A DNA stretch of 64,000 nt from Escherichia coli (GTDB lineage: Bacteria > Pseudomonadota > Gammaproteobacteria > Enterobacterales > Enterobacteriaceae). Positions 18,621-19,649 of this stretch are shown piece after piece. The notes beneath the pieces are model-generated. The model did no database searches. It saw only the letters and a list, made by a program, of their open reading frames with translations, and was not told the DNA's origin. Within the stretch, counting starts at the first letter, position 1; every line of letters starts with the position of its first letter. The DNA is taken from NCBI RefSeq assembly GCF_003991155.1, contig NZ_CP031294.1; one strand, given 5' to 3'. A program made the translations under genes and the position numbers.

Positions 18621-19031
18621 TTAAGGGTTAGTGAGAGCTTGAAATGCGGCCGCGTAGGTAGCGATATCGACCATAATTTTTGGATCTTTCGCGTACTGAT
18701 GTGCGTTGTTAGGGAAGATTGCCAATAGGCTATACACATCTTGGAAATGTGCATGTTGACTGTAAACGAGTGCACGGTCGCTTGTGCAATTGAATCTGCT
18801 GCGGCTGCTGGTTCGTTCTTGCTTCGTGAACAAGAGATGAACGTGATAAACGCGGGAGGACACGATAGCACCAGGAGCCGTATACGGGCCATCTTTGCCG
18901 AATATGGCTGGGTACATGCCTTGTTTAAACGACTTGAAATCGTTGAGTAACGTAATCTCTAAGTCAGGCTTTATATCGAAGGTCGGCTTTAAAAATTGGG
19001 CGTAACTATCACTGTTCCATGTGATCTTCAT
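18621..19031 (-). CDS. yafO: YafO-family toxin (ribosome-dependent mRNA interferase family)
   Basis: By-eye alignment to E. coli YafO: DF.S(F/Y)K, FG(K/R)D..Y, (V/A)H(V/I)HL, T.D..LVY.Q, LLAI, and A.AF at the C-terminus. Confidence 0.7.
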   Translation of the reverse strand: MKITWNSDSYAQFLKPTFDIKPDLEITLLNDFKSFKQGMYPAIFGKDGPYTAPGAIVSSRVYHVHLLFTKQERTSSRSRFNCTSDRALVYSQHAHFQDVYSLLAIFPNNAHQYAKDPKIMVDIATYAAAFQALTNP

Positions 19032-19040
19032 CGTTCAACC

Positions 19041-19649
19041 TCAATGGAATGAGAAGTTGGCGAAGACGTCCTCATCAATGAGGCCAGTCTGCGATTCGAT
19101 GACGTTTACGTCGTTAAAACACTGATTTAAAATCAATAGCAGATCAGAGATAGCTAAACGATACTCAGTTACAGAATCGCTCAAGCGTTTCAAATATGGA
19201 TGAGGTTGCTCAGAGTCGCGAATCAACTTGTTAACGAATCCCTCCAAACCACGAATGGTCAGGTCAACGTTCTTCAGTTCTTCGTAACGACTTTCACCGA
19301 AGTTGCTGCGAATCTTTTCCGCTTTCCATCCAGAGATGGCATGGGCTAAGCGAACGTGTTTCGCCGTCAATTCTGCGAGCTTGCTTTCAATCTTTGCCAG
19401 CTGTGCCGCATCGCGGTTCTCTTGAACAGGAATAGCCGCAGTGCTCACATAGGTTTGTGTTTTGAATCCTGTGAATTTCGCAGAGGGCTTCATCGTGCCA
19501 CGGAAGCGTCGATATCCACGCGGTTCAATAAAATCACGCCCAGATTTAGCTGTAGGCTTTGCGTTTGAAAAGCGTGAAGCGTTAGAGGTCACAGTAGCAA
19601 GGGCATTGCTAATGACACTCATATCTTCTAGGCAATTTTCTAAACGCAT
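19041..19649 (-). CDS. putative cognate antitoxin (202 aa, not YafN/Phd-like)
   Basis: Directly upstream of the toxin. 9-nt gap with GAGG overlapping its stop. Acidic C-terminus. No recognisable DNA-binding motif. Confidence 0.4.
   Translation of the reverse strand: MRLENCLEDMSVISNALATVTSNASRFSNAKPTAKSGRDFIEPRGYRRFRGTMKPSAKFTGFKTQTYVSTAAIPVQENRDAAQLAKIESKLAELTAKHVRLAHAISGWKAEKIRSNFGESRYEELKNVDLTIRGLEGFVNKLIRDSEQPHPYLKRLSDSVTEYRLAISDLLLILNQCFNDVNVIESQTGLIDEDVFANFSFH

Follow-up and report, generated by a model that had tools for sequence, protein, structure and literature searches.

YafO is among the least understood of the RelE-like toxins. Whether it depends on the ribosome is disputed (PMC8546651), and a sequence search found no solved structure of either YafO or its antitoxin YafN. 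The only model of an antitoxin for YafO is that of the chromosomal E. coli system, where YafN is a 97-residue protein of the Phd/YefM type (PF02604), as also noted in the initial annotation of the DNA described here. Yet our analysis indicates that, in at least 570 PLSDB records of plasmids and phage-plasmids from Enterobacterales, YafO is paired with unannotated partners of ~175-205 aa that have no recognizable domain. Leplae et al. reported YafO toxins both with Phd and with unclassified 'guilt-by-association' partners (PMC3141249), and in the SLING survey of E. coli known antitoxins made up only 8% of the YafO_toxin partner clusters (PMC10790755). Here we consider one such pair, a YafO-family toxin gene and the gene upstream of it, at positions 18,621 to 19,649 of a stretch of 64,000 nucleotides from E. 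coli (assembly GCF_003991155.1, contig NZ_CP031294.1). This whole stretch is referred to below as the window, and the product of the upstream gene as the partner. In the literature on YafO in connection with SSU5, pHCM2, phage-plasmids or novel antitoxins, we found no functional study of this partner.

Based on our analysis, the pair is probably a self-contained, translationally coupled two-gene cassette of the toxin-antitoxin (TA) type, in which a YafO endoribonuclease is combined with a partner of an uncharacterized family acting as its antitoxin, and which would serve plasmid maintenance or defence. In other words, as judged from sequence, the toxin family is known, the antitoxin family is uncharacterized and the pairing is widespread. 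The gene structure, the family membership of the toxin, the lack of a known antitoxin domain in the partner, the strict pairing, the mobility of the two genes as a unit and the purifying selection on them are directly established; toxicity, neutralization, the binding surfaces and the biological role are what we infer. The cassette itself comprises the following features:

18621..19031, minus strand: toxin gene of the YafO family, 136 aa, WP_024170889.1 (from the list of open reading frames)
19032..19044, minus strand: coupling junction, with the partner stop codon TGA at 19043-19041, the Shine-Dalgarno sequence GAGG at 19042-19039, a 9-nt spacer and the toxin start codon ATG at 19031 (read directly)
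19041..19649, minus strand: partner gene, putative antitoxin, 202 aa, WP_164726266.1 ('hypothetical protein'), phrog_13546 (from the list of open reading frames)
19654..19659, minus strand: Shine-Dalgarno sequence of the partner gene, AAGAGG, 4 nt ahead of the partner ATG
19683..19711, minus strand: promoter-like element, with TTGTAG as -35 (19711-19706), a 17-nt spacer and TACACT as -10 (19688-19683)

Both open reading frames thus lie on the minus strand where the initial annotation had placed them, and the coupling that it described, a 9-nt gap with GAGG over the stop codon of the upstream gene, can be read from the sequence. Across the junction, the minus strand reads TTC CAT TGA GGT TGA ACG ATG, so that the GAGG overlaps the partner stop. 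The same arrangement, consisting of T(G/A)AGG, a further 6-7 nt and ATG, with 9 nt between the genes, is retained in eight of the nine loci of the class to which the window pair belongs (class A), down to 53% toxin identity. The promoter-like element scores under the threshold of the scanner; a block of the form TTGT(A/C)GCTTT, 17 nt, TA(C/A)ACT is conserved 5' of the partner gene in a Kluyvera phage-plasmid, an Erwinia chromosome and an Enterobacter contig. The block at 19711-19683 may well be the cassette's own weak promoter. With this single upstream promoter-like element, and with a terminator between the pair and the neighbouring grxA gene, the two genes form a small, co-directional and coupled pair, as is characteristic of type II TA systems.

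The initial annotation had assigned the 136-aa product to the YafO family by eye, and profile searches lead to the same assignment. The protein matches the Pfam family YafO_toxin (PF13957) with 78.4 bits against a cut-off of 25 (E-value 4.7e-22), the match covering positions 2-100 of the 101 in the profile, and it is 36% identical to YafO of E. coli K-12 over 110 residues (E 3.9e-12). All of the conserved blocks named earlier align with E. coli YafO: FGKD with FGRD, YHVHL with AHIHL, TSDRALVYSQ with TNDEAHLVYCQ, LLAI with LIAI and AAAF with AEAF. The invariant residues of the YafO alignment (K36, G38, G45, T83, Y90, L102 and A127) are all kept in the window toxin, and so are H63, H65, S84 and F130, which occur in at least 90% of the aligned YafO sequences. 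By NCBIfam PRK09885, the protein is not a YafO equivalog (58.7 bits versus a cut-off of 153), and since its score is far under this threshold we regard the window toxin as a separate YafO subfamily. Its AlphaFold2 (AF2) model has a predicted RelE/HigB-like microbial RNase fold. Family and fold are consistent with a YafO-family endoribonuclease that would be toxic when unopposed.

Gene order, coupling and strict co-occurrence in unrelated contexts suggest that the partner is likely the cognate antitoxin of this toxin, which it would neutralize. At a threshold of at least 60% identity, the partner is found in 315 PLSDB records and the toxin subfamily in 312. All partner homologues with readable downstream DNA are followed, 7-12 nt further on, by a PF13957 gene. 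The pairing is seen in phage-plasmids of E. coli, Klebsiella and Kluyvera, on one Enterobacter contig and in the most divergent, metagenomic member, as well as on the chromosomes of Erwinia sp. JUb26, Brenneria goodwinii, Pluralibacter gergoviae, Samsonia and Pectobacterium. When one genome was taken for each of 185,579 species, the toxin subfamily was present in five, all of them Enterobacterales. Among complete E. coli genomes, the 1184-bp segment holding the cassette occurs in 19 of 5426 and is plasmid-borne every time.

The neighbours of the chromosomal copies (in Erwinia, Brenneria, Pluralibacter and Enterobacter) are unrelated metabolic genes, which indicates that just the partner and the toxin travel together. 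That the pair moves as a unit is further supported by the promoter block and a remnant of the grxA terminator, both of which accompany it. On the Enterobacter contig and the Pluralibacter chromosome, this remnant, consisting of the grxA 3' end and terminator hairpin, lies ~60-150 nt upstream of the partner gene, and these copies would thus be derived from the phage-plasmid slot described below. The initial annotation had also raised the possibility of a three-function addiction or defence module. This proposal finds no support in the comparison: only two genes travel together, no third gene is conserved beside them, the phage-plasmid and chromosomal neighbours differ completely, neither the integrase nor grxA accompanies the chromosomal copies, and a third function could not be detected. 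Both genes of the cassette are under purifying selection, with ratios of non-synonymous to synonymous substitution rates (dN/dS) of 0.18-0.20 for the partner and 0.03-0.18 for the toxin. Non-synonymous change is 1.2-1.8 times faster in the partner than in the toxin; antitoxins usually evolve faster than their toxins. As a separate observation, contig RJVB01000001.1 (1.08 Mb) of Erwinia sp. JUb26 carries a canonical YafN in addition to the pair of long partner and YafO, and directly downstream of that pair there is an HNH endonuclease gene in convergent orientation.

The partner had initially been described as a protein with no recognizable antitoxin motif, and sequence profiles, profile-profile comparison and fold search have likewise failed to place it in a known antitoxin family. 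It has no significant match in Pfam, NCBIfam or PADLOC, and its profile finds no match among PDB sequences. It is not of the Phd/YefM type, as there is no PF02604 match and the hhalign comparison of its profile with YafN gives a probability below 1%. In PADLOC-DB 2.0, neither this partner nor the other classes of YafO partners have a match, and the toxin has a 13-bit chance match only. The sole family assignment of the partner is phrog_13546 (415 bits), whose function is not annotated. This family is very small: 27 partner clusters, all at 58% identity or higher, were recovered from 5.8 billion proteins by a word-indexed search, and an exhaustive hidden Markov model (HMM) search of 1.84 billion representative proteins gave 11 relatives. 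An Rfam scan of positions 18300-20200 returned nothing significant and hence gave no hint of an RNA antitoxin in this region.

Two local resemblances to YafN were considered. The hhalign pairing of RLENCLEDMS, near the partner N-terminus, with YafN residues 79-88 (RAEQYLNDMT) was rejected as chance, because that segment is not conserved in the YafN family. The other resemblance concerns the partner tail, where D-E-D-V-F-A-N-F is faintly like the YafN C-terminus (D-D-D-F-N-D-F in E. coli and D-K-D-L-T-E-F in the family consensus, with F95 near invariant). We treat this weak likeness, which may be written as [DE]-D-x-Phi-x-x-F, as a lead and not as evidence. It is the one point that would speak for the partner being a diverged member of a known antitoxin family, be it Phd/YefM, RHH, HTH, PanA or another. 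However, with null results from the Pfam, NCBIfam, PADLOC and PDB HMM searches and no significant hhalign similarity to YafN, this explanation has been largely refuted. The same applies to its variant, a three-component locus including a neighbouring gene, given that the integrase and grxA are missing from the chromosomal copies and that no third gene is conserved. We therefore assign both a minimal chance of being correct.

According to the family alignment and the AF2 model, the partner is an all-helical protein laid out as an N-terminal helix, a disordered linker, a three-helix bundle and a tail. Residues 1-28 are near invariant, acidic (isoelectric point, pI, 4.7) and amphipathic, with the modelled helix spanning residues 6-28. 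The linker (residues 29-74) is basic (pI 11.1) and disordered, with a predicted local distance difference test score (pLDDT) of ~33, and its length ranges from near zero to ~50 residues. The three-helix bundle (residues 75-178; pI 7.0) is modelled with a pLDDT of 81-89. The C-terminal tail (residues 181-202), ESQTGLIDEDVFANFSFH, is acidic/aromatic and strongly conserved (pI 4.05), with a pLDDT below 50. Low model confidence despite conservation is typical of segments that fold only upon binding, and the tail may be one of them. Accepting the partner as the antitoxin, we would expect it to neutralize the toxin through direct binding. The binding determinants would most likely be the two segments that are best conserved, namely the amphipathic, acidic helix at the N-terminus and the acidic/aromatic tail at the C-terminus; the three-helix bundle might provide a scaffold or oligomerization surface, and the variable basic linker is a candidate site of proteolysis. 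At the level of the cell, the cassette would most plausibly stabilize the plasmid prophage, which has a low copy number, through the death of cells from which it has been lost, and/or it may act in abortive infection or in competition among related elements.

Long partners of YafO are found beyond this subfamily. Plasmid YafO toxins that are 26-36% identical to the window toxin are likewise preceded by a long unannotated protein, and never by a YafN-sized one. Apart from class A, we distinguished class B (phrog_8416; K. pneumoniae WP_023287162.1), with a partner of 178 aa, class C (WP_040177223.1, WP_006812569.1), with partners of 174-182 aa in 257 PLSDB records and a YafO gene beside each, and class D (Pantoea WP_013512440.1), with a partner of 210 aa. 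Four alleles other than that of the window occupy the same slot between grxA and the integrase in Klebsiella, E. coli, Salmonella and Enterobacter phage-plasmids, which suggests that the slot holds alternative alleles of one module type. By profile comparison, the class B partner is a remote homologue of the window partner (hhalign E 3.5e-5 over 101 columns, with the motif RGLEG.V in common), and it links to class C as well (hhalign E 1.7e-4). A motif at the end of the last helix, L-I-x-Q-x-(F/T)-x-E...E-S, is common to classes A, B and C. Direct comparison of the class C and D partners with class A revealed no significant similarity (hhalign E 0.04-0.5). The partners of these two classes begin with a positive n-region, a hydrophobic stretch of at least 12 residues (Kyte-Doolittle 2.1-2.5) and an AxA-like site. 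Such an N-terminus, for example MKDSITKIAMVVALALSSLSHGSYA-KD, resembles a Sec signal peptide, whereas that of class A is acidic and moderately hydrophobic.

Since other plasmid YafO subfamilies also have partners of 174-210 aa, the arrangement is not an oddity of the window. On mobile elements, YafO appears to be accompanied by a long partner as a rule, and among the antitoxins sampled it is YafN, the Phd-type protein encoded in the dinB operon, that looks exceptional. The 'new antitoxin class for YafO' proposed in the initial annotation is accordingly upheld in one respect and corrected in another: the partner is likely a cognate antitoxin and falls into no known family, but the arrangement is not peculiar to the window, the same family being present in ~315 PLSDB plasmids and long partners of other YafO subfamilies in at least 257 more. 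Backed by this comparative evidence, the designation of a new class seems plausible. A bolder view would be that the long helical partners (classes A, B, C and perhaps D) form one unrecognized superfamily, that they are the ancestral or usual regulators of YafO on mobile elements, acting as signal-responsive switches, and that the slot alleles mediate defence or exclusion between competing elements. The conserved termini would then clamp the toxin, and the bundle, the linker or the hydrophobic N-terminus would sense a phage protein, plasmid loss or the state of the envelope. We consider this view improbable as a whole, with a small chance of being right.

A less far-reaching alternative concerns the partner alone, which could be a regulator, sensor or chaperone and not a simple antitoxin, the pair being a defence rather than an addiction module. 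In one version, the partner would be a phage-sensing switch that holds the RNase and releases it in abortive infection; in another, it would be an adaptor for the stability or localization of the toxin. A 202-residue protein with a helical bundle is indeed far larger than masking a 136-aa toxin needs, and it is without a DNA-binding domain. Natural copies in which the partner is disrupted but the toxin is whole point in the same direction, as does the presence of AbiGi, AbiH and Gp49 in the slot region of relatives, and the hydrophobic or signal-like N-termini of the sister classes hint at an association with the membrane or envelope. Nonetheless, the pair has no PADLOC match, and its gene order, coupling and toxin-first decay follow the ordinary pattern of type II TA systems. 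Moreover, a sensor role would be compatible with the partner also being an antitoxin. We hold this alternative to be unlikely, though it deserves to be kept in mind.

The natural variants bear on the antitoxin role in both directions. In at least 31 Klebsiella contigs the toxin is shortened to 100-102 aa and the partner is intact, and in Acerihabitans both genes are truncated; such toxin-truncated and doubly truncated copies fit the TA reading. The converse is found too, in rare variants, and it is the first of several points that weigh against the partner being a conventional antitoxin. In E. coli plasmid CP059990.1 (locus 2501-3526) and three other contigs, the partner is interrupted by stop codons (after residue 121 in CP059990.1), with 2-nt and 1-nt deletions, and the toxin is identical to that of the window. 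In the Klebsiella variant RDAV01000003.1 (locus 2900-3951), the reading frame of the partner shifts within the linker, after residue 33, next to an intact toxin gene. Both kinds of variants retain the N-terminal helix of the partner. It is possible that a fragment suffices, that the toxin falls silent once coupling is lost, or that viability does not require the partner. The second point is regulation. Pfam and NCBIfam searches detected no HTH, RHH, AbrB or Phd domain in the partner, there is no palindromic operator at the cassette promoter and no operator conserved across relatives, and a direct repeat, TAGTTA(C/A)GAG, is present in close relatives only. Lacking both a DNA-binding domain and a conserved operator, the cassette gives no support to classical autoregulation. 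A DNA-binding domain is, for its part, not universal among type II antitoxins. Third, the signal-like N-termini of class C and D partners are hard to reconcile with a cytoplasmic antitoxin if all classes work alike. Finally, the overall confidence of the AF2 models is moderate (pLDDT 65 for the partner and 68 for the toxin).

Since an intact toxin can occur beside a disrupted partner, and since shortened toxins are common in Klebsiella, one might also suppose that the locus is a decaying or domesticated remnant. The YafO-like protein would then have lost its toxicity, and both genes would be carried along as cargo that is either neutral or of some other use. In a global survey, mRNA cleavage by E. 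coli YafO itself was comparatively slight (PMC8546651), which would agree with such a view. However, dN/dS of 0.03-0.2 for both genes, the retention of all family-invariant residues in the window toxin, the conserved coupling junction and promoter, and the spread of the cassette across several genera and into chromosomes all speak against it, and we consider the remnant explanation very unlikely.

The plasmid-prophage setting suggested in the initial annotation is well founded. Positions 17000-21500 match NZ_OW849379.1, a non-mobilizable IncFIB plasmid of E. coli (110.7 kb), at 100% identity and Escherichia phage CMS-2020a at 98.8%; by these matches the replicon is a phage-plasmid. The adjacent integrase is present, at 60% identity or higher, in ~790 PLSDB plasmids from Klebsiella, Escherichia, Enterobacter, Yersinia and Salmonella. 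These genera together with the IncFIB replicon type correspond to the SSU5 supergroup of phage-plasmids, in whose shell genomes TA systems are known (PMC7969092). Within this SSU5-like phage-plasmid, the cassette is located in a variable slot between the integrase and grxA, delimited by the following features:

18546..18578, no strand: palindrome with perfect 16-nt arms and a 1-nt loop, the fixed left edge of the slot
18580..19763, no strand: variable cargo segment holding the cassette, 1184 bp, defined by the break in homology to the empty-slot plasmid pHXH-2
19721..19736, minus strand: terminator-like hairpin, GGCTCC-TTTT-GGGGCC followed by a T-run, located past grxA and directly 5' of the cassette promoter

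Homology to pHXH-2 breaks off at 18579, just after the palindrome, and sets in again at 19764, within the grxA 3' end, with 97 bp in pHXH-2 instead of the cassette. Other relatives have unrelated open reading frames, different cargo or a different allele of partner plus YafO in this slot. The comparison with the empty slot of pHXH-2 and with these differently filled relatives indicates that the cassette is exchangeable cargo. The palindrome, AATGATTCCATACATA-G-TAGGTATGGAATCATT, lies between the integrase start and the toxin stop. All variants compared retain it at the edge of the slot, among them Klebsiella and Salmonella elements with flanks only ~70-75% identical, and it could serve as a site of recombination or of integrase binding, or else form a regulatory hairpin.

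Another variable slot, flanked by grxA and tRNA-Ser (19991-21250), is found in a strongly AT-rich patch of 27-31% GC compared with ~45% around it. Its open reading frame at 20164-21072 (plus strand; 302 aa, phrog_35492) has no Pfam or PADLOC match; a relationship to AbiH was tested and not found. At the corresponding position, relatives have AbiGi plus a 403-aa protein, a gene of the Gp49 family, or AbiH, so that this slot looks like a hotspot of defence genes. Taking the cassette slot and the neighbouring slot together, relatives hold AbiGi, AbiH and Gp49/HigB-like genes. Four tRNA genes follow on the minus strand at 21251-21808 (Ser-TGA, Thr-TGT, Tyr-GTA and Asn-GTT), and the region of the tRNA-Ser gene matches phages P7 and D6 at ~96% identity. 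On the other side of the cassette, a gene for a 128-aa HTH (XRE-like) regulator (16963-17349, plus strand) and the integrase gene (17344-18447, minus strand) are convergent, their 3' ends overlapping by 6 nt, and this arrangement is conserved across all relatives inspected.

Defining the partner class would have several practical consequences. It would correct the 'hypothetical protein' labels that hundreds of clinical plasmids of Klebsiella, Enterobacter and E. coli still carry, and it would help to clarify the maintenance of, and competition among, SSU5-type phage-plasmids, which accompany multidrug-resistant lineages. The pair is also a tractable candidate for the first structure of a YafO complex. 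The advance is incremental within the known 'mix-and-match' picture of TA systems and does not represent a new principle.

Among described systems, YafN-YafO of the E. coli dinB-yafNOP operon is the closest to the window pair. In both, the gene of the known or putative antitoxin is upstream and tightly coupled to a toxin gene of PF13957, and the two toxins have the blocks FG(K/R)D, HxH, T(S/N)D..LVY, LLAI and AxAF in common; the C-terminus of YafN is possibly similar to the acidic Phi-x-x-F motif of the window partner. The differences are nonetheless substantial. YafN has 97 residues and a Phd/YefM domain, whereas the window partner has 202 residues, is predicted to be all-helical and has no detectable homology to it, and the window toxin has an N-terminal extension distinct from E. 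coli YafO. In addition, yafNO is chromosomal and belongs to an SOS operon, whereas the window cassette is mobile cargo found in E. coli on plasmids only. The modules of classes B, C and D are similar to the window pair in that an unannotated partner of 174-210 aa is coupled to, or overlaps with, a PF13957 toxin; they differ in the toxin itself (26-36% identity) and, for classes C and D, in the C-terminal tails of the partners, which are unlike those of class A. The toxins of HigB-HigA and RelE-RelB are more distant, with 6-15% sequence identity to the window toxin, and antitoxins of the HigA/RelB type bind DNA through HTH or RHH domains, nothing comparable being detectable in the window partner. 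Finally, phd-doc of the phage-plasmid P1 (mentioned in PMC7969092) is, like the window cassette, a TA-type pair on a plasmid prophage, although the families involved are unrelated. In P1, phd-doc serves post-segregational killing.

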